From: a bacterium
Lineage (GTDB): Bacteria > SAR324 > NAC60-12
Reading direction: 5' to 3'
NCBI GenBank assembly: GCA_965205865.1
Contig: CBDBHR010000030.1
Span: 576,001 to 640,000, forward strand
Length of the DNA: 64,000 bases
Below are positions 4,948-40,653 of the stretch, piece after piece. Every line of letters begins with the position of its first letter. Within the stretch, counting starts at the first letter, position 1. The translations under genes and the position numbers were made by a program. Under the pieces are notes generated by a model. That model was given only the letters and a program-made list of their open reading frames with translations. It was not told the origin of the DNA and did not search any database.

Positions 4948-5084
4948 GCGAGGTCATCATACTATTATGCCCCTCACCGACATCGGTCTGGAGTTCGAGT
5001 TTTGGAAGAAAGGTCGTAAAACACGATGAGTCACAGTTGTCAGCGAAAAAATCCGAATTTTTCGAAGGGAAAAGAAAAGGAAAA

Positions 5085-6221
5085 TTGAAGTTGATCGTAG
5101 TTATCACCGGTCTTTCCACCGGCGGCGCTGAAATGATGTTGCTCAAAGTTCTGGAGAACATTGATCGTCATCGATTTTCTCCACATGTCATTTCACTGAC
5201 GACAAAAGGGGAGATCGGCGACTGTATTGAAGCGCTGGGAATACCGGTCGAAGCGCTTGGCATGAAATCCGGTTGTTTCAGTCCGGTAAAGTTCTTACGA
5301 CTTGTCTACATGCTCCGAGAATTGAATCCGGATGCCATCCATACCTGGATGTATCATGCGGATTTGTTGGGCGGGTTGGCAGCACGCTTGGCAGGGGTCC
5401 GGACCGTTGGTTGGGCAATCCATCACAGTAATTTTTCGTCGTCACACAATAAGCGATCAACCTTATGGGTTATGAAGGCGTGTTCGCTCTTGTCTGATCG
5501 AATACCGAGAAAAATTCTATGCTGTTCTCGAGTGGCGATGGATATTCATATTTCTGCCGGATATGACAAAGGAAAGATGGTCGTCATCCCCAATGGATTC
5601 GACATCTCTCGGTTTCTCCCGGACGCAAACGCTCGTATCTCGGTACGTTCCGAATTGGGGTTGCGCAAAGACACCCCGCTCGTCGGGTTGATTGCACGCT
5701 TCGACCCGCAGAAAAATCATGAGGGCTTCTTCGAAGCCGCCGCGCGAATACATCAAAGCCTTCCCGACGCCCATTTTTTACTGGCAGGCGCTGGGGTGAA
5801 GGACAACAACCCCGCGTTGCGTCGCGCGATAAAGCAGGCTGGAGTGGGAACAAATACCCACCTTCTTGGAAAACGTGAGGATATTTCTCGTTTAATGGCT
5901 GCTCTGGACGTACTCGTTTCTTCTTCTTCTTTTGGTGAGGCCTTCCCCAACGTGCTCGGTGAGGCCATGGCTTGCGGCGTGCAATGCGTGGTCACGGAAG
6001 TTGGGGATTCAATGGAAATCGTAGGAGAGACGGGTCGGGTCGTGGCAGTGGGAGATATGGACGGATTGGCTCATAACATCGTCGAGATTTTGCAATTGTC
6101 TTACGAGGAACGCCGAGCCATGGGAGCAAAAGCGCGGGAAAGAGTTCGAGCGAGATACGAAATCGAAAGCGTGGTCAAACAATATGAAAGATTCTATGAA
6201 AGCCTAATGAGCAAGAGCTGA
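5085..6221 (+). CDS. Glycosyltransferase family 4 (WbnK-like)
   Basis: ITGLSTGGAEMML, HTWMYHADLLGG, GEAFPNVLGEAMACG; start estimated at TTG 5085 (ORF open from 4944). Confidence 0.9.
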   Translation: MKLIVVITGLSTGGAEMMLLKVLENIDRHRFSPHVISLTTKGEIGDCIEALGIPVEALGMKSGCFSPVKFLRLVYMLRELNPDAIHTWMYHADLLGGLAARLAGVRTVGWAIHHSNFSSSHNKRSTLWVMKACSLLSDRIPRKILCCSRVAMDIHISAGYDKGKMVVIPNGFDISRFLPDANARISVRSELGLRKDTPLVGLIARFDPQKNHEGFFEAAARIHQSLPDAHFLLAGAGVKDNNPALRRAIKQAGVGTNTHLLGKREDISRLMAALDVLVSSSSFGEAFPNVLGEAMACGVQCVVTEVGDSMEIVGETGRVVAVGDMDGLAHNIVEILQLSYEERRAMGAKARERVRARYEIESVVKQYERFYESLMSKS

Positions 6222-9367: not shown

Positions 9368-10370
9368 ATGGCGCGTATGGACAATGGAAAAACAATGACC
9401 CCCAGTTATCTCGTTACGGGAGCCGCCGGGTTCATTGGCAGTCGGGTGGCGGAGTTGTTGCTGGATGGTGGCGCGGAAGTTACCGGCGTCGACAATCTGA
9501 ATCACACCTACGACGTCCGGCTTAAAGAGTGGCGGCTCGCCCAACTCGATACCCGGGAGGGGTTCAGCTTCCGCAGAGTGGACATCTTCGACCCAAGAGC
9601 AGTCGACGGTCTCTTCGCGAAGGGCTTCGACGCCGTGGTCAACCTGGCGGCTCGGGCCGGGGTGAGAGCATCGGTGGAAGACCCGCAGGCGTATATCGAC
9701 TGCAACGTCAGCGGTACGCTGAACCTGCTGCGGGCATGCAAGGCGTATGACGTGCCCAAATTGGTACAGGCGTCGTCTTCCAGCGTCTACGGTTCGAGAA
9801 GCACGCCGCCGTATCGCGAAGACGCCGTTACCGACTGGCCACTCTCTCCATACGCGGCGTCGAAGAAGGCCTGCGAAGTCCTCTGCTACCCGTACCACCA
9901 TCTGAACGGCACCGACGTCACTGCCTGCAGGTTTTTCACGGTTTACGGCCCTGCCGGACGCCCCGACATGGTGCTCTTCCGAGTGGTGCAATGGATCGCC
10001 GAGGGACGCCCCGTCCTTGTCTACGGGGACGGGCGGCAAGAGCGGAACTTCAGCTACGTGGACGATGTGGCGCGAGGCGTGGTTGCGGGATTGAGGCGAG
10101 TGGGTTTCGAAATAGTGAATCTGGGCTCCGACCGGTCGGTGAAGTTGATTGACGCCATCTCGCTGGCCGAGAAGCTGCTGGGCAGGAAGGCGAAGATCGA
10201 GTATCTGCCCGGCAATCCGGCAGACGTGTCGCTCCAATCCGGCAGACGTCACGAAAGCAAAAAACCTGCTCGACTGGGAACCGCAAGTGGACCTGGAAGA
10301 GGGGCTCAGCAAAACAGTGGCCTGGTACCTGGAAAACCGCCAATGGGCCAAGGACTTGGTCACGCTGTAG
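9368..10370 (+). pseudogene. NAD-dependent epimerase (UDP-glucuronate 4-epimerase-like), frameshifted near 10235
   Basis: TGAAGFIG, SSSSVYG, YAASKK, FFTVYGPAGRPDM; C-terminus ADVTKAKNLLDWEP...DLVTL* lies in another frame; visibly GC-rich. Confidence 0.85.
10254..10370 (+). repeat. Epimerase 3' end, copy 1 (117 bp)
   Basis: 102/117 identical to 11242-11358 by manual alignment. Confidence 0.92.
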
Positions 10371-30367: not shown

Positions 30368-31816
30368 ATGAGCAAATCAACACACATTCAAGAGATTGCG
30401 CAACAACGGGAAAGTTGGCTTCAAGCGATTTGGGCGCACCAAGTGTTCGATAAAAAAAATCTGCGAAGCACTGATGGAGAAAAGATCGAAATCGGCTTTC
30501 CCGGATGGCTCAATAAAGGGGTTGGCCCGGATTTTCACGATGCGCAGATTGTGATAGGTGACAGGCAATTTCATGGATCGGTGGAGGTGCATCTACAATC
30601 CTCTGCCTGGCATACTCACAAGCATCAGCAAAACCCCGCGTACAATTCCGTGATATTACATATTGTGCTCGATCAGAATACTTTCCGGCCCATCGAGAGA
30701 GAAGATGGGATTGCCGTTGCCGAGTTGGAACTTCGCGCGCGCTTGCGCAAGAATGTACTCTCGATGCTCGCAGACGAAAACGAATTGTTGGAACGATATG
30801 ACCATTTGCCCGGACGTTGTGGAATGATGGTGATGGAATGGGGGGCCATGCCACTCGAGCAACTGTTGGGACATGCGGCAGAAAACCGCATGCAGCGTAA
30901 AGTCGACCGGGTTATGCAGCAGTGGGACGGCCATGCACCGGAACAACTGCTATTTCAATTGATCTTCAAAACACTGGGCTATAGCAGCCATTCCCATTCC
31001 TTTGAAGAATTGGCCCAATTGCATCCGATCTCGGAACTGTACCCCTTGCTGCAACAACCCTATCGCGTGGCAAGAACGGAGATTTTGTCACGCTGGTTTG
31101 GGGCTTGTGATCTTTTTTCAAGAAAGAGTCCCCGTTTCGTCCACTCGACGTTGCGAAAAGAATACCATCAGTGGCAAGAAACCTGGCAACGGCAGTCCTC
31201 GAAACAAAAAATTGCCGGGAAATTCGTGATGACGTCTCGTCCGCAAAATTTACCGGAGCGCCGTTTGATCGGAATGTTTCATCACCTCTACCGTCTGAGT
31301 ACGGAGGGATTGTTGAAAGGCTGGTTGAAAGTCTTAACGGAACTGGAAAGCCTTTCGGCGGAAACTTCATTGAAGAAAAAGACCCTGGAACGAACCTCGG
31401 AATTGTTTGCCACGCCCGATTGGGAAATATGGCAATCCTTTCTGGGTTTGCCAACTTCTCATAGTTCCTCCAGCGCCCAGTTGATCGGGAAAGATCGACA
31501 GCTCGTTATCTGGGCCAATGCGATCATTCCTTTTTTTCTGGCATATGCCCGCCATGAAAAATGGATCGCCTTGGAAAAACTGCTTTTCCGTCTCTTCCTC
31601 GTCCTTCCTGCGGAATCGGCCAACCACCGAACACGTTTCATGGAAAAAAGACTGTTGCCATTTCCTGCGATTACCCTGAAACACAAAACCCTTCGCATTC
31701 AACAGGGATTACTGCAAATCCATCAGGATTTTTGCCAGAGTTTCGATCAAGGCTGCCGACAATGCCAATTGCTTCATTTTCTTGAACAATTTCATCGCGA
31801 TCAGCCCTCCTGCTGA
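30368..31816 (+). CDS. DUF2851 family protein
   Basis: GPDF, GSVEVH, WHTHKH, YNSVILHIV, RPQNLPERRL, QQGLLQIH..C..C. Confidence 0.8.
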   Translation: MSKSTHIQEIAQQRESWLQAIWAHQVFDKKNLRSTDGEKIEIGFPGWLNKGVGPDFHDAQIVIGDRQFHGSVEVHLQSSAWHTHKHQQNPAYNSVILHIVLDQNTFRPIEREDGIAVAELELRARLRKNVLSMLADENELLERYDHLPGRCGMMVMEWGAMPLEQLLGHAAENRMQRKVDRVMQQWDGHAPEQLLFQLIFKTLGYSSHSHSFEELAQLHPISELYPLLQQPYRVARTEILSRWFGACDLFSRKSPRFVHSTLRKEYHQWQETWQRQSSKQKIAGKFVMTSRPQNLPERRLIGMFHHLYRLSTEGLLKGWLKVLTELESLSAETSLKKKTLERTSELFATPDWEIWQSFLGLPTSHSSSSAQLIGKDRQLVIWANAIIPFFLAYARHEKWIALEKLLFRLFLVLPAESANHRTRFMEKRLLPFPAITLKHKTLRIQQGLLQIHQDFCQSFDQGCRQCQLLHFLEQFHRDQPSC

Positions 31817-31896
31817 TTCCGGAATCCTCCAATGGAGCAACCATGGCTCCGTCAAGGAGGATCCGGGAAAGCGACAGAATCAAACCTCTGCGACTT

Positions 31897-32315
31897 CTTC
31901 CGAAATTTCAGGAGCTTGCGGGGCTTCCGAAATTTCAGGAGTTTGCAAAGTTTGCGGGGCTTTCGGGGCTTCCGAAATTTCAGGAGTTTGCAAAGTTTGC
32001 GGGGCTTTCGGGGTTTCCGAAATTTCAGGAGTTTGCGAAGTTTGCGGGGCTTTCGGGGCTTCCGAAATTTCAGGAGTTTGCAAAGTTTGCGGGGCTTTCG
32101 GGGTTTCCGAAATTTCAGGAGTTTGCGAAGTTTGCGGGGCTTCCGAAATTTCAGGAGTTTGCAAAGTTTCCGGGGCTTTCGGGGCTTCCGAAATTTCAGG
32201 AGTTTGCAGGAGTTTGCGAAGTTTGCGGGGCTTTCGGGGTTTCCGAAATTTCAGGAGTTTGCGAAGTTTGCGGGGCTTTCGGGGTTTCCGAAATTTCAGG
32301 AGTTTGCGAAGATTT
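31897..32315 (-). repeat. 45-bp coding tandem repeat (9-bp subunits) at the rpoC 3' end
   Basis: gaaatttcagga at 31902, 31929, 31974, 32019, 32064, 32109, 32145, 32190, 32245, 32290. Confidence 0.95.
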
Positions 32316-35300
32316 TGGAATTTTTCGAGTTACTATGATTTCCGGGGCACGTATATAAGAGACGTCTTTAAATCCGGAATAGCCTGTTCCCGCAGGGATC
32401 AGTTTCCCCAGAATAACGTTTTCCTTCAAGCCACGGAAGGTGTCGTATTTCCCCCCTAAGGCGGTATCGGTGAGAACCTTCGTGGTCTCTTGAAAAGACG
32501 CGGCTGAAATGAAGGAGTCGGTACTCAAAGCGGCCCTGGTGATTCCCAAAAGTACCGGTCTCGAACGCGCCGGTATCATGCCTTTATCAATCATTTCCTG
32601 ATTCTTCTGATTGAATTTGCTTCGCGAAACCACTTCTCCAATCAAGAAAGTCGAATCTCCCGAATCTTGAATGAAAACCTGCTTGAGCATTTGGCGGACT
32701 ATCACTTCAATGTGTTTGTCATTGATGCCGACGCCTTGCAGACGATAGACTTCCTGCACTTCATCCACCAGATATTTTTGCAGATCTTTGATTCCTTTGA
32801 CTGCAAGGATATCATGTGGGTTGGGAGATCCATCGATCAAAGGTTCCCCCGCCCGCACATATTCCCCTTCATGGACAGTGATATGCTTTCCCCGGGGAAT
32901 GAGATATTCTTTGGACTCGCCTTTCTCATCTTCGGGTTGAATGATGATTTTTTGTTTCCTTTTTACATCTTTGCCGAAATTGACGATGCCATCGATTTCG
33001 CTGATTACGGCTTGGTCTTTGGGAATGCGAGCTTCGAATAATTCCGCCACTCGAGGCAATCCTCCCGTGATATCTTTGTTTTTCGCCAGTTCTCTTGGAA
33101 TTTTGGCGAGAATATCACCCGCATGAACCTCCTGACCATCTTCTACCACCAACTCGGCCTTGACAGGCAGAGAGAAAACGGCGGGACCGTCATTAGTGTT
33201 TTTTATGGTACGACCACCGCTGTCACGAATCGAAACCTGAGGATGCATGTCGGGATCCGGAGATGCCAGAATCGCGTGCCGTACCAAACCCGTGGCTTCG
33301 TCCACCTGTTCTCTGACGGTTTGTCCTTCAATGATGTCATTGAAACGAATGTATCCCGAAACGTCCGTCAGAATAGGAACGGAGAAGGGATCCCATTCGG
33401 CAATCTGATCACCTTGAGTGACGTTGGCTCCCTGCTCGAATTTGATGATTGCGCCCAGTGGGAGGGGATGTCTTTCTTTTTCCCGTCCATTTTCGTCCAC
33501 AATGATGGCTTCGCCCCGCCGTCCCAAGACCGTCCAGAAGCCCCTCTCATTCTTCACCTCCTTTAAATCTTTGAGGTGTAGAATTCCGCTGAATTTGACA
33601 TCCCACGTGTTTTGTTCCGCACGACGGCTCGCTGTGCCACCAATGTGGAAAGTACGCATGGTGAGTTGGGTTCCGGGTTCTCCGATGCTTTGCGCGGCAA
33701 TCACTCCCGCGGCCTCTCCCATATTGATCAGGGTTCCCCGCGCAAGATCCCGTCCGTAGCATTTTCGACAAATGCCGCGTTCCGTCATGCAAGTCAACAC
33801 GGAACGGATTTTCAACTTTTCGATTCCAGCCCGGTCGATTTTATGCACCACGTCTTCGGTCACTTCCTGACCAGCCCGCACCAGAAAATGGGATTCATCA
33901 TCAGGATCCACCACGTTTTCCAACACAATTCGTCCCAAGATCCGTTCCGAAATCGGTTCAATGACCTCTCCCGATTCAATGAGGGCAGTGATATCGATGC
34001 CATCGAGGGTGCCACAATCTTCTTCCATCACCACGCAGTCCTGCGCCACGTCCACCAGACGGCGGGTAAGGTATCCCGAATTGGCGGTTTTGAGCGCCGT
34101 ATCAGCCAATCCTTTGCGAGCGCCATGAGTGGAAATGAAGTACTGTAAGACGTCCAAGCCCTCACGGAAGTTGGCAGTGATTGGATTCTCGATGATTTCC
34201 CCGGAAGGTTTGGCCATCAGCCCGCGCATGCCGGCCAATTGCTTCATCTGCTGGGCGCTGCCCCGTGCTCCGGAGTCGGCCATCATGAAAATGGAATTGA
34301 CTTTTTGGGTGCCATCCAAATCCACGATTTCTTCCGTCAGGCCTTTTAGCATCTCTTCAGCAATTTTTTCGGTGACGCGTGCCCATATATCGATCACTTG
34401 ATTGTATCGCTCTCCGTCAGTAATCAACCCATCTTGATATTGAGAATTGATTTGATTGACTTTTTGTTGCGCTTCGTTGAGCAAAATACCTTTCAGAGGA
34501 GGGATGACCATGTCTTGCATGCCAATAGAGAATCCTGCATTGGTCGCAAAGGCGTATCCCAGATTTTTTAGTGAATCCAACATTTGGACCGTCTTGACAC
34601 TACCTGCTCTCCGGTAGCAAATATCGACCAGTTCTCCCAATTGTTTCTTATTCAAATGCCGGTTAATCAAGGAAAAGGGCACTTCCTTGGGAATGACTGA
34701 TGCCAGGAGGATTCTACCCACCGTCGTATCGAAAATCTCACCATCGATGCGGACTTTGACTTTTGCCTGCAAATCCACCTTCTTGTGATCATAGGCGATG
34801 CGCACTTCGTCAGGATTGGAAAATATCTTGCCTTCTCCCGCAACGCCGTCACGTTCGCGGGTGATCCAGTAAAGTCCCAATACCATATCCTGATTGGGCG
34901 CCATAACCGGCTTTCCATTAGCAGGCGACAAAATATTGCTGGTGGCCATCATCAGAATTTTCGTTTCCAGTTGAGCTTCCACGGAAAGAGGGATATGCAC
35001 CGCCATTTGGTCGCCATCGAAATCCGCGTTGAATGCGGTACAAACCAAAGGATGAAGTTGGATCGCTTTTCCTTCAATCAGAACGGGTTCAAAGGCCTGG
35101 ATACCCAAGCGGTGCAAAGTGGGGGCGCGATTGAGCAACACCGGATGATCGACTATCACTTCTTCCAGAATCGCCCAGACCGCCGGTGAGCCTTCCTCTA
35201 ATTTCTTTTTTGCCATTTTGATGGTTGGAATCTCGTTGCCATCAATGAGTTTGTGATAGATGAATGGTTTGAACAATTCCAGAGCCATTTTCTTGGGAAG

Positions 35301-36398
35301 TCCACATTGATGAAGCTTCAACTCCGGTCCCACGACAATGACGGTTCTGCCGGAATAATCGACCCGTTTTCCCAACAGATTTTGACGAAAACGTCCCTGT
35401 TTCCCTTTAAGCATATCACTGAGCGACTTCAAGGGGCGTTTATTGGTTCCCATGATCGGACGTCCTCTTCTGCCATTGTCGAAGAGGGCATCGACTGATT
35501 CTTGCAACATCCGTTTTTCATTTTTGATGATAATGTTGGGAGCTCTCAATTCGATCAATCGTTTCAGCCGGTTATTGCGATGAATGACCCGGCGGTACAA
35601 ATCATTGAGATCACTGGTTGCAAAACGGCCTCCTTCCAAGGGAACGAGGGGACGCAACTCTGGTGGCAAAATGGGCAGTATATCGACAATCATGGAATCC
35701 GGCGCATTTCCGGAAAGTTTGAGAGCATTGATGATATTCAATCGTTTGACAATGCGTTTGCGACGCGCTTCGGAGCCGGTTTCTCTCAATTCCCGGTGCA
35801 ACGATTCGCTCAAAGCCATCGGGTCAATGCGCCGGAGAAGCAATCGCACTGATTCAGCGCCCATTCCCAATTCGAGGTCGGAGAATTCTTCCAGCAATTC
35901 CCGGTATTTATCCTCCTCCACTATATCTTTTTCCTTCAAACCGGAAGCGCCGGGTTCCAGGACAATATAAGAATCGAAATAAAGCACGCGTTCCAAATCA
36001 CGTAGCGTCATATCCAACACGGTGCCAATCCGGCTGGGCACGCCTTTCAGAAACCAGACGTGTGAAACCGGAGAGGCAAGCTTGATATGCCCCATTCTTT
36101 CCCGACGGACTTTCGATTGAATCACTTCCACTCCACATTTTTCGCAAGTGATTCCGCGGTGTTTCATCCGCTTGTATTTGCCGCAATTGCATTCATAGTC
36201 ATGGGTTGGCCCAAATATCTTGGCACAAAACAAACCATCACGCTCCGGCTTAAAAGTCCGGTAGTTGATGGTTTCAGAAGTTTTCACTTCCCCGTTCGAC
36301 CAGGACAAGACATCCTCATGGGTAGCAATATTGATCCTGACGGCGGTGTAATCTTTGGGACTCATGGTGAGTTCGAATAAACTTTTTAAAGAAATCAC
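32196..36398 (-). CDS. rpoC: RNA polymerase subunit beta' (may extend to 31880 if the repeat frameshift is an artefact)
   Basis: NADFDGD, Zn motifs, [13 protein letters not shown]; start estimated at GTG 36398 after GGAGA. Confidence 0.97.
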
Positions 36399-36465
36399 GT
36401 TGTTCTCCAACTTAGGGGTGACTCTTAAAATCGAGAGAAGAAACAGCTTCCAAAAAAAACGCTTA

Positions 36466-39400
36466 TCAGAGAACTTCCTCCTCCAATTCATTCTCGGAAG
36501 AAACTGTTTCGACATTTTGTAATAATTCAATATTCAGACACAGGCTTTTGAGTTCACTGATCAAGACCTTGAAGGACTCGGGAATGCCGGTATCCAAATG
36601 CTGGATTCCCTTGATAATCGTTTCGTACATCCGGTTCCGTCCCTGGACATCGTCGGATTTGACAGTCAGCAGTTCCTGCAGCGTGTAAGCTGCCCCGTAG
36701 GCTTCCAATGCCCACACTTCCATTTCTCCAAAACGCTGGCCGCCAAACTGGGCTTTCCCCCCAAGGGGTTGCTGTGTCACCAGGGAATATGGCCCGATAG
36801 AGCGGGCATGGATTTTTTCATCAACCAAATGGTGCAGTTTGAGGATGTATGCGTAACCCACGGTAACTTTCTGACTGAAACGTTCTCCCGTCAAGCCATC
36901 ATACAACCAAATTTGCCCGGATTTCGGAAGTTCCGCCAATTTCATCATGGTGTGGATGTCATCTTCCGTGGCGCCATCAAATACGGGAGTGGCCATATGG
37001 ATGCCGTTGCGACATTTGTGGGCAAACTCGAGAAATTCTTCGTCACTGAGACGGTTGAGATACTTGGTCACTTCAGGAACATTATAAATTTGCTTGAAAA
37101 ACCTTCTCAGTTTGTTGACCGGATGGTTTTTTTCCACAAATTTTTGCACCTTTTCTCCCAATTCGTGGGCAGCCCAACCGAGGTGGGTTTCCAAGACCTG
37201 ACCAACATTCATGCGGGAGGGGACGCCCAGGGGATTCAAGACGATATCAATCGGAGTCCCGTCTTCCTGGAAAGGCATATTTTCTACCGGTTGGATTTTT
37301 GAGACAATCCCTTTGTTTCCATGCCTGCCCGCCATTTTGTCGCCCACCGCCAACTTTCTTTTGGTGGCCAGGTAAACTTTGACCATGCGAATAACCCCCG
37401 GAGGCAATTCGTCACCTTTGGAAATTTTTTCGCATTTGTCTTGATAAATGTTTTCCAGCAAATACATTTGCGAAAGTGCGTTGCCGACCAGAATTTCAAG
37501 CTGCTGATTGCTTTCAGCATTGTCGGTTTTGACCGAATTCCAGTTTTTCAACGGGAGGATTCCCAAATTTTCTTCAGTGATAATAGTTCCCGACGCCAGG
37601 AAGATTTCTCCTTTGGCAACACTGATTTTCCTGGTCAGTTTTTTGTTCTGAATGAGAGGAAGAGCCATTTTGAGCAAATTGCGTCTTACAATTCTCAATT
37701 CATCTTCATGGTCCTTTTTATAGGTTTCCAGCAGTTCCCGTTCGTTTTCCATTGTGCGTTTGTCTCGTTCGACGCCACCACGGTTGAAAACCACCACATC
37801 GATGACAACGCCCTCCACTCCTTGATTGACTCGTAACGACGTATCACGAACATCTCCCGCTTTTTCACCAAAAATGGCGCGGAGCAGCTTTTCTTCGGGA
37901 TTGAGTTGACTCTCGCCTTTGGGAGTGACCTTTCCTACCAGGATATCACCGGGTCTCACATAGTTTCCCACGCGCACAATGCCGCTATCATCGAGCTGCG
38001 CAAGCGCTTCTTCACCGACATTGGGAATATCACGCGTGATTTCCTCCTTACCCAGTTTCATATCTCGGGCTACCATGTCAAAAATATCGATATGGACCGA
38101 GGTGAAGCGATCTTTATGCAGCAGCTTTTCGGAAACCAGAATGGAATCCTCGAAATTGTAACCATTCCATGGCATGAAAGCGATCATGATATTTTGCCCG
38201 AGGGCCAATTCACCGTTGTCGCAACTGGAGCCATCCGCAATGATATCTCCGGCAGAAACCCGCTCTCCTTTCGTCACCAGGGGACGCTGGTTGATACAAG
38301 TATTCTGGTTGGATCGTCGATATTTGGTGAGATGATAAATATCGACATTGGCCGGCACGACGGAACCTTCTTTGGAAAGGTCGACGTCCGCTTGAATCAC
38401 AAGCCTTCCGGCATCCACGCTATCAACGATGCCGGATCGTTTTGCCACCACGCATGCCCCGGAGTCCAAGGCGGTCTGATATTCGACGCCTGTCCCGACA
38501 AGAGGCGCTTCGGAACGAATGAGGGGCACTCCCTGACGTTGCATGTTGGAACCCATCAAAGCCCGGTTGGCATCATCGTGTTCCAGAAAGGGAATGAGGG
38601 ATGCCGCCACCGAAACCAATTGACAGGGAGCCACGTCGATAAAGTGGACGTCGTTTTTGGGAACCATGCCATATTCCCCGCCTTTTCGAATTGAAACAAA
38701 TTCTTCAACGAATTCTTTTTTTGCGGTCAATTGGGCATTGGCTTGCGCAATATTGACCGCATCTTCTTCGATGGCGGAGAAAAACCTGACCTCGTTGGTA
38801 ACTTTTCCCTCTTTGACCCGGCAATAAGGGGTTTCAATGAAACCAAAGCGATTGATGCGGCCGTGAGTGGCTAAGGACGCAATCAATCCGATGTTAGGAC
38901 CTTCCGGCGTTTCAATGGGACAAATGCGCCCATAATGGGAAGAGTGCACGTCTCGCACATCAAAGCCGGCTCTTTCCCGGGTCAAACCTCCCGGTCCCAG
39001 CGCACTCAGTCGTCGTTTGTGCGTGATTTCCGAGAGGGGATTGGTCTGGTCCATGAATTGAGACAACTGGCTGCTACTGAAAAATTCATGGATGGCCGCA
39101 GCCACCGGTTTGGCATTGACGATATCATGGAGCATCATGGTTTCGGTATCTTGCAGACTCATTCTTTCTTTAATTGCCCGCTCCATATGAACCAGCCCTA
39201 TACGGAATTGATTTTCCAACAATTCTCCCACGCTACGAATTCTGCGATTGCCCAGGTGGTCGATGTCGTCGATGGCGCCCTGACCTTCTTTGAGCAACAA
39301 AAGGTATCGTACGGAGCCAAGGATATCTTCATGAGTGAGGGTCGATTGATCAAGGGGATAATCCAATTGCAGCTTCTTGTTGAGCTTCAAGCGTCCTACT

Positions 39401-40653
39401 TTCGACAGGCTGTAACGCGCAGGATTGAAAAAGAAATTTGTTATCAAGGTATTGGCAGCCTCCAAAGTGGGAGGATCGCCGGGTTTCAGTTTTTTATACA
39501 ATTCGATCAATGCGGCATCCGGAGAAGTGATTTGATCGATAGCCAGCGTGTCCCTCAGACAAGAGCTGATCGTTTTGGCGGCAATGTGCAGGACTTCGAC
39601 TATTTCTACTTTGTGAGCAAGCAATTTTTCTAATATTGCTTCATCGATAAGGCTGTTGCATGCCAACAACAGTTCCCCTCTTTCGCCATAAATATCACGA
39701 GCCGCATATTTTCCTTGCGCATCCTCCCGGGTGATCTTGATTTGCTCGATTCCGGCTTTTTTCATGCGTTGCACGAGTTTCTCGGTGAATTTTCGCCCGA
39801 CTTTCACCAAGGTTTCCCCGCTTTGAGGATCCTGGATTTCGTGGGCAGCCCGCTGGTTGACGGTTACCAGAGGATCGACGTATTTAAAAAACTCTTGCTT
39901 CCCGCGGTCCCCTGTATGATGGGCATTCCGTAAATCGATTTTTTCGAATTGATAAAACGATTCCAGGATTTGTTCCGTCGTGTACCCCAAGGCTCTCAAG
40001 AGTATGGTGGCGGGAAATTTCCGGCGACGATCGATACGGACATAGAGGATGTCTTTGGTATCAAATTCGAAATCGAGCCAAGAACCCCGTTGTGGGATAA
40101 TGCGGGCGGAATAAAAATTCTTCCCTCCCGTGTTGACTTTTGTCTTATCCAGAGAGAAAAAAAGTCCCGGACTCTTATGCATCTGACTGACGATGACCCG
40201 TTCCGTTCCGTTGATGATGAACGAACCAGTGGGTGTCATGAGGGGAATATCTCCCAGATAAATATCCTGTTCCTTAATGTCATGAATGTGCTTTACTTCG
40301 GAAACATTGTCCTTTTCCCAAACGATCAACCGTAAGGCGGCACGCAGTGGCGCAGCATAGGTTACCCCCCGAATCCGACACTCTTCCACCAAATATTTGG
40401 ATTCTCCGAGCCGGTAATGCACATATTCCAGGGTGGAAGAGCCGCTAAAATCTGAAATCGGAAAGACCGAGCAGAAAACAGCTTGCAGCCCTTCTTCCTC
40501 GCGCTGGTCGGGCGGAGTGTTTTTTTGTAGGAAACGTTCGTAGGAATCCAGTTGGATTTTCAATAAATTAGGCACTCCGATTGGCGCCTCGATACGACCA
40601 AAAGAACGCCTGATGCGATGACGATTGCTCAAGTCGGTTGACATAACGCTCAC
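36466..40653 (-). CDS. rpoB: RNA polymerase subunit beta
   Basis: [41 protein letters not shown]. Confidence 0.98.

Follow-up and report, generated by a model that had tools for sequence, protein, structure and literature searches.

Variable acidic tails are known from the beta' subunit of bacterial RNA polymerase. They are located after the last conserved motif (..IPAGTG..), are acidic and unstructured in composition, and differ in length from lineage to lineage. RNA polymerase II (Pol II) carries on its homologous largest subunit a C-terminal domain (CTD), which is a disordered, Ser/Thr/Pro-rich tail of tandem heptads (YSPTSPS), conserved across its lineage and required, whose phosphorylation is regulated and recognized by partner proteins. 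Intragenic minisatellites, also called coding variable-number tandem repeats (VNTRs), have a unit length that is a multiple of three, near-identical copies, strain-specific copy numbers and a disordered product. In bacteria, most reports of coding VNTRs concern surface or secreted proteins. Both PMC7230257 and 10.1101/339663 connect tandem repeats with disorder in general, and the CTD coding array of yeast is described in PMC7341143 as genetically unstable and changing in length. Here we describe the rpoC gene of a bacterium of the SAR324 lineage (NAC60-12), in which a 45-nt tandem repeat codes for the tail of beta' and is interrupted, as assembled, by a 10-nt duplication. The gene lies within a stretch of 64,000 nt (contig CBDBHR010000030.1 of assembly GCA_965205865.1, positions 576,001 to 640,000 of the forward strand), hereafter called the window, and coordinates are given in the numbering of the window.

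The tail of this beta' shares with the variable acidic tails its position after ..IPAGTG.., its composition and its lineage-variable length. It differs from ordinary beta' tails in being a regular 15-aa tandem array with copy-number variation at the level of strains. With the CTD it shares the location at the C-terminus of the largest subunit, the tandem repetition, a Ser/Thr/Pro-rich and apparently disordered composition, and an unstable coding array. A sequence-only reading of the window had called it loosely reminiscent of the Pol II CTD; this likeness holds for position and repetitiveness only. The tail is no CTD homologue; the unit is a 15-mer without Tyr, strongly acidic, and same-genus relatives have no repeat. 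In contrast to the CTD, the repeat is absent from 6 of the 13 complete members of its protein cluster and from all 19 family relatives; it is confined to one species-level clade, evidently dispensable and of independent origin. All the features of coding VNTRs listed above are shared as well, the disordered product by prediction, but here the repeat sits in an essential cytoplasmic core enzyme. In the accessible portions of the texts covered by a full-text literature search, a bacterial beta' with a C-terminal tail of tandem repeats was nowhere described. Our favoured reading, to which as a whole we assign a probability of about 0.8, is that the tail is a tolerated, nearly neutral coding minisatellite on rpoC and that the break in its frame is a one-off event.

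The repeat array at the end of rpoC

As a member of the RpoC family, the gene is unremarkable. A complete beta' is encoded by a single open reading frame (ORF) on the minus strand at 32196..36530, with the C-terminal end ...QTSQTPANS*. Rpb1 domains 1 to 5 (PF04997, PF00623, PF04983, PF05000 and PF04998) were detected by Pfam above the cut-offs and in canonical order between residues 62 and 1336 of the 1444-aa ORF translation. The NADFDGD motif, the defining catalytic motif of beta', is readable in the translation. The start was assigned to the GTG at 36398 by comparison with sister proteins, which begin with MISLKSLF. From this start, the assembled rpoC (36398..32196, minus strand) yields a product of 1400 aa, and an identical protein, P0018, is a member of the cluster described below. 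The conserved core runs from the sister-type GTG to the final conserved motif ...GKLIPAGTG (32382..36398, minus strand). When the genome to which the window belongs (G000) was queried with the last 400 aa, four matches were obtained, all at the rpoC locus; as no other locus was matched, this is the sole rpoC. The single copy stands in the rpoB-rpoC operon context, with rpoB (36466..40653, minus strand; an ORF of 1395 aa with Rpb2 domains by Pfam) adjoining it upstream.

Behind the conserved core, the minus strand carries an unrepeated tail leader, a tandem array and a short terminal segment. The leader of 28 aa (32298..32381) can be aligned to the same-genus tail YSGFKNVSYRHIPEIIISHRPSGTPHTP. 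The array (31910..32297), as defined by Tandem Repeats Finder and by a split at anchors, consists of nine units with the consensus PEISE(A/T)PKAPQT(S/L)QT. The terminal segment (31880..31909) is the ancestral C-terminal end EISEEVAEV with its stop at 31880..31882; this end is shared by all six intact sister tails, and the six unrepeated relatives have EPSEEFAEI or a near form of it. Tandem Repeats Finder reported a period of 45 nt with 8.8 copies, 86% matches and a score of 573 over 31914..32311. For the anchor split, units were delimited at the 12-nt anchor that opens each of them. This anchor is present in ten copies in the array and in one copy elsewhere in the 4.74-Mb genome, and the ten copies are spaced, in gene order, by 45, 55, 45, 36, 45, 45, 45, 45 and 27 nt.

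The 55-nt unit is an ordinary 45-nt unit plus a repeat copy of its last 10 nt. The first copy of this tandem duplication is located at 32208..32217 and the second at 32198..32207 (minus strand). The second copy shifts the frame by +1 into a premature TGA at 32196..32198 (minus strand), at which the assembled protein of 1400 aa ends with QTPANS. A 10-nt period with 3.1 copies was detected at 32197..32226 by Tandem Repeats Finder. The tail continues out of frame on the minus strand at 31883..32203 for 107 open codons of undecayed units, and aligns over 100% of its length with the in-frame tail of the sister protein P0004 at 73% identity. With one 10-nt copy removed in silico, a comparison of lengths only, the frame between stops measured 1547 codons, up from 1445; counted from the sister-type GTG, the protein becomes ~1502 aa long in place of 1400 aa. 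One of the other two frames of the unit meets a TGA in each unit; the remaining one lacks stops and would encode a basic repeat. Because of the TGA in each unit, a +1 event always truncates within 15 codons.

These results bear out every element of the anatomy proposed by the sequence-only reading. Its ten EISE units were recovered by the anchor split with the same list of spacings, given there in the reverse direction. The 10-nt duplication (gcaggagttt near 32205) that it held to stop translation at 32196 corresponds to the two copies named above and to the TGA read from 32198 to 32196. Its estimate of about 140 aa for the tail without the duplication, up to EEVAEV* at 31880, is close to the ~135 aa counted from the first EISE with the frame restored.

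Sister alleles and the tails of relatives

The out-of-frame tail was used as query against 5.8 billion proteins, longer proteins only. A single RpoC cluster was matched, with P0004 (1469 aa) as the hit, at 73% identity over the whole query. This cluster, defined at 90% identity, has 17 members, of which 15 are listed; two of these are fragments and 13 have a complete C-terminus. Six listed members, including that of the same-genus relative G001, are unrepeated proteins of 1376-1379 aa, with tails of 37-40 aa ending in PEPSEEFAEI or a close variant. Another six (P0004, P0009, P0010, P0011, P0013 and P0015) carry the repeat intact, are 1442-1509 aa long with 103-139 aa after IPAGTG, and all end in EISEEVAEV. 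The one remaining listed member with a complete C-terminus, P0018, is the truncated protein of the window itself. The other four hits of the tail search (three BMC-domain proteins and one RCC1-like protein, with P/E/T linkers) were set aside as compositional likeness, not homology. The BMC-domain hits, P0005-P0007, are shell proteins of Lacrimispora-like bacteria whose P/E/T/K-rich repeat linkers are 45-53% identical to the rpoC tail, and are probably convergent low complexity.

Among the six intact tails, five distinct layouts were observed, and all six tails are read in a single frame. Differences in the 1338-aa core numbered 0-19 within the repeat clade and 98-120 against the unrepeated group, indicating that the repeat arose once in a species-level clade and turns over fast. 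Far outpacing the core, the intact alleles have changed in how many units they hold, in the size of the units (9, 12 or 15 aa) and in residues (T/A/S/V, Q/E, K/E). The array is thus a coding minisatellite, with in-frame, near-identical units that differ in copy number among close strains. The variable length that had been proposed from the window alone is directly visible in these five layouts, as gain and loss of units between strains. A scan of JGI metagenomes with the tail yielded no further alleles and four weak compositional matches (31-40% identity).

Nineteen further genomes of the family have tails of 23-80 aa after ..IPAGTG, mostly acidic, and the present repeat was found in none of these 19. 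Each of the 19 relatives ends with a Glu located between positions -2 and -4 and with small or aliphatic residues behind it. The tail of G001 is 37 aa long (YSGFKNVSYRHIPEIIISHRPSGTPHTPEPSEEFAEI) and ends in PEPSEEFAEI. Its start aligns with the leader of the window tail, and its end aligns with the out-of-frame end PEISEEVAEV of the window. A small internal duplication is already present in the DNA of G001, in the form of two ACTCCG-led nine-base stretches encoding TPH and TPE, a seed out of which the unit can develop. This alignment and this small duplication together indicate that the array is an amplified ancestral C-terminal segment, and they place the ancestral stop at 31880.

A broader survey covered 80 further species, in which distant RpoC loci were found in genome contigs with the last 134 aa as query. 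The named hits span various phyla and include several Desulfobacterales; the nearest genomes are not among the loci surveyed. Their beta' tails were 9-236 aa long, usually acidic and of low complexity. A regular tandem array was seen in none of the 99 other tails (19 of the family and 80 of further species), as judged by eye without a repeat finder. Comparison of the RpoC C-termini of relatives, a check named in the sequence-only reading, therefore gave six sister proteins with an intact repeat tail, and six cluster members and 19 of 19 family genomes without the repeat.

Extensions of other kinds were noted at the C-terminus of beta'. In two relatives from other genera of the family (loci L015 and L017, in genomes G018 and G012), the tails of 63-80 aa are rich in Ala, Glu, Lys and Arg and probably helical, representing a different low-complexity expansion at the same position. 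In three loci labelled Solirubrobacterales (L084), Gaiellales (L087) and Coriobacteriaceae (L100), the frame continues past the last beta' motif for ~75, ~145 and 236 residues, respectively. The extensions of L100 and L087 include a helix-hairpin-helix-like segment (..GIE.V.DLL..T...L..I.G.G.K..EE..), which suggests a folded domain on beta' in some Actinomycetota.

The break in the reading frame and its surroundings

The break was present in one of the seven repeat-bearing sequences, that one being the protein of the window. Since the other six need no shift, the break is neither conserved nor programmed. It is a one-off 10-nt duplication, unique to the present assembly, and not a feature of the lineage. 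What the sequence-only reading had called an internal frame switch is accordingly a plain frameshift. Nor do copy changes of the array switch the frame on and off in the manner of a phase-variable contingency locus, as the 45-nt unit and its 9-nt sub-units keep such changes in frame. The 10-nt event lies outside any homogeneous 10-nt tract, its 3.1 copies being imperfect.

The frequency of frame breaks was examined by searching 187 long ORFs from 400 kb of G001 against G000, with at least 70% identity taken to define an orthologue. Among the 128 orthologues, 118 aligned in one piece and 10 did not, and seven of these 10 were split between adjacent frames. Four of the seven were checked at the nucleotide level, and differed by +34 nt (a tandem duplication), +1, -1 and -2 nt. 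These seven split orthologues, together with a second tandem-repeat gene that is broken, indicate that the assembly or the genome has many small frame breaks and that the one in rpoC is not special. In a reference-free test of tandem duplications whose length is not a multiple of three, nine restored and eight broke a frame on removal; there is thus no genome-wide excess and no sign of a special duplication process. Exact tandem duplications were counted at 99 per Mb in G000 and 85 per Mb in the 400 kb of G001, which is not different.

As to the nature of the duplication, an artefact and a real young mutation stand at roughly even odds. We give an even chance to the duplication being an artefact of assembly or consensus, in which case the organism makes the full beta' of ~1502 aa ending in EEVAEV. 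Slightly short of even, in our judgement, is a real and recent mutation of the strain, by which beta' is truncated after two units without its acidic end, and which is tolerated since the tail is dispensable. The restriction of the break to the window's own sequence among seven favours an artefact, and the truncated form was found in no independent assembly, which speaks against a mutation. The downstream units are undecayed, as expected for an artefact, and for the same lack of decay a mutation must be very young. However, a clean 10-nt tandem duplication is atypical of consensus errors of the homopolymer type, while the array itself is prone to slippage, and relatives manage with tails of 9-40 aa, both of which are in favour of a real mutation. 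The remaining frame breaks can be taken on either side. Those in 7 of the 128 compared orthologues, and that of the second tandem-repeat gene (G000:C29, L125 2044..4929 and 4975..6000+), likewise located inside its array, would fit an error-prone assembly. But the 34-nt duplication lies in unique sequence and resembles a real mutation; it disrupts a gene of the same genome, as do other short indels, and the genome may carry many young frameshifts. The nine duplications, rpoC included, whose removal restores a long frame would also argue for mutation, but the eight with the opposite effect in the same test leave no enrichment.

Another explanation considered was that ribosomes shift by +1 in a programmed manner at TCC-TGA, by which both a short and a long beta' would be made. 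A +1 shift at the stop would indeed rejoin the tail frame, but six of the six other repeat-bearing sequences need none and the site is not conserved. Neither a slippery run nor a Shine-Dalgarno-like stimulator nor downstream structure was visible in the 40 nt around 32196..32230, by inspection without a dedicated scan, and re-pairing of the P-site tRNA after a +1 slip would, by reasoning, be poor. We regard such a shift as extremely improbable.

Contigs of public runs in Logan (X1, X3, X5 and X8) are fragmented inside the array into pieces of 39-75 letters. The junction 32207|32208 is bridged by no listed piece of these four runs, and the missing cover proves nothing. Gaps in cover were located at 32162..32209 in X8 and from ~31949 to 32236 in X3 and X5, and X1 may lack 32194..32209, as judged from depth arithmetic. 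In both X3 and X5, a G>C change at 32270 would convert Q to E in the first unit, as in P0009 and P0011, which hints that these runs hold an allele of the P0009/P0011 type.

Several other broken genes of this genome were observed in passing. A clean 34-nt tandem duplication relative to G001, at G000:C28 ~585,160-585,230, frameshifts the orthologue of a 310-aa protein. Two more genes of the window are frameshifted relative to G001, at ~10,236-10,264 (C30:586,236-586,264) and ~61,853 (C30:637,853), one by a +1-nt and the other by a -2-nt indel. The tandem-repeat gene on C29 (G000:C29:328543-332500; L125 2044..4929 and 4975..6000+) encodes a very large membrane-anchored repeat protein, of 961 aa plus at least 342 aa. 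It carries 45-nt repeats of the PEKEQVAQAPEKPA type, followed by an array of ~117/234 nt. Its frame breaks near L125 4915-4975, at a place that lacks short stretches present in the adjacent units.

On the downstream side, rpoC faces a convergent gene for a 482-aa DUF2851 protein (30368..31816, plus strand; Pfam). A hairpin (31808..31879, minus strand) is located directly past the downstream stop, between the convergent genes, and is not followed by a U-run. Its folding energy is -32.9 kcal/mol (z -2.3), and 5 of 200 shuffled sequences fold as well; the hairpin was absent from the output of a consensus terminator scan. Three ORFs on the plus strand (31782..32459, 31832..32338 and 31843..32358) and one on the minus strand (31880..32164) were rejected as genes and taken as by-products of the stop-free repeat.

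Origin and possible role of the tail

We propose that a short acidic tail of beta' was expanded into tandem units of 45 nt (15 aa) in one species-level lineage. The units derive from the ancestral gene end (...TPHTPEPSEEFAEI in the same-genus relative), and amplification may have proceeded by slipped-strand mispairing or by unequal recombination between the 45-nt units and between 9-nt sub-repeats. Since the lengths of the unit and of its 9-nt sub-repeats are divisible by three, additions and deletions stay in frame, and the sister layouts differ while all end in EISEEVAEV. The duplication of 10 nt in unit 2, which is not a multiple of three, moves reading into the frame with one TGA per unit and cuts the protein of this assembly after two units.

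The predicted product is an acidic, proline-rich, unstructured tail of ~100-160 residues on the exposed C-terminus of beta', with no part in catalysis. We take the C-terminus of beta' to be solvent-exposed and tolerant of tags, and to be the topological counterpart of the place where the Pol II linker and CTD emerge. PMC7700224 places omega/RPB6 beside the largest subunit's C-terminus, and the present tail would leave the enzyme there. Five tails were composed of 17-20% Pro, 15-22% Glu, 10-17% Thr, 9-16% Ser and 7-14% Gln, with no aromatic residue and a net charge of -10 to -22. A single-sequence AlphaFold2 model of the tail had no secondary structure, with a pTM of 0.11 and a mean pLDDT of 60.8. 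A Pfam scan of the tail frame gave no match. Composition, Pfam and model together weakly predict that the tail is disordered. The S/T/P-rich disordered tail proposed earlier is in line with both composition and model, to which an E/Q-rich character is to be added. We take such a tail to be a tolerated and nearly neutral spacer, whose effect would at most be to hold the conserved acidic end at a greater distance from the enzyme.

Several observations weigh against this favoured reading. The unit cores EIS(E/Q) and QTP are kept in all alleles, and neither the frame nor the terminal EEVAEV is lost in any of the six intact ones; both could reflect selection for function. All four variable nucleotide sites among the units of the window change the amino acid, which neither proves nor excludes selection. 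The prediction of disorder, drawn from composition and a single-sequence model, is weak. If the tail were functional, it could be a putative multivalent docking arm, comparable in logic to the CTD or to disordered tails with a linker and an acidic tip, in which EISE..TP motifs and the acidic tip recruit a partner to RNA polymerase, with avidity or reach that might be set by the number of repeats, and with control that might be exerted by Ser/Thr phosphorylation. Retention of the unit core and of the terminal EEVAEV in every intact allele is in favour of such an arm, but the layouts vary freely in number and in residues (T/A/S, Q/E, K/E), and the repeat is absent from same-genus and family relatives. 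The Glu at -2 to -4 before small or aliphatic residues in 19 of 19 family relatives fits a conserved tip, yet may reflect just acidic composition and shared ancestry. The presumed place where the tail exits, beside omega/RPB6 at the largest subunit's C-terminus by homology, is also in favour of an arm. On balance we consider a docking arm unlikely.

A comparable arrangement is found in the tail of the bacterial single-stranded DNA-binding protein (SSB), where a proline-rich linker of variable length carries a short, conserved acidic-hydrophobic tip, like the present tail. In contrast to SSB-type tails, the tip of beta' is poorly conserved beyond the genus, and we know of no partner of this tip. 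A more far-reaching proposal is that the tail is a bacterial analogue of the CTD principle. It would then be a possibly phospho-regulated docking arm near omega, recruiting a lineage-specific transcription or RNA-processing partner or serving as a decoy for a phage protein that binds RNA polymerase, while slippage would tune the number of repeats and the 10-nt duplication would act as a reversible off-switch. We hold this to be very doubtful.

For annotation, the recorded RpoC of 1400 aa is probably a mis-assembled or freshly truncated form of a protein of ~1500 aa. If the tail is merely tolerated, as in the tolerated minisatellite that we favour, then the C-terminus of an essential and conserved enzyme can take more than 100 residues of fast-mutating repeat, and the tail would be a fine-scale strain marker for this lineage. 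If the tail proves functional, it would represent a case in which bacteria independently invented a docking tail built of repeats, on RNA polymerase's largest subunit.

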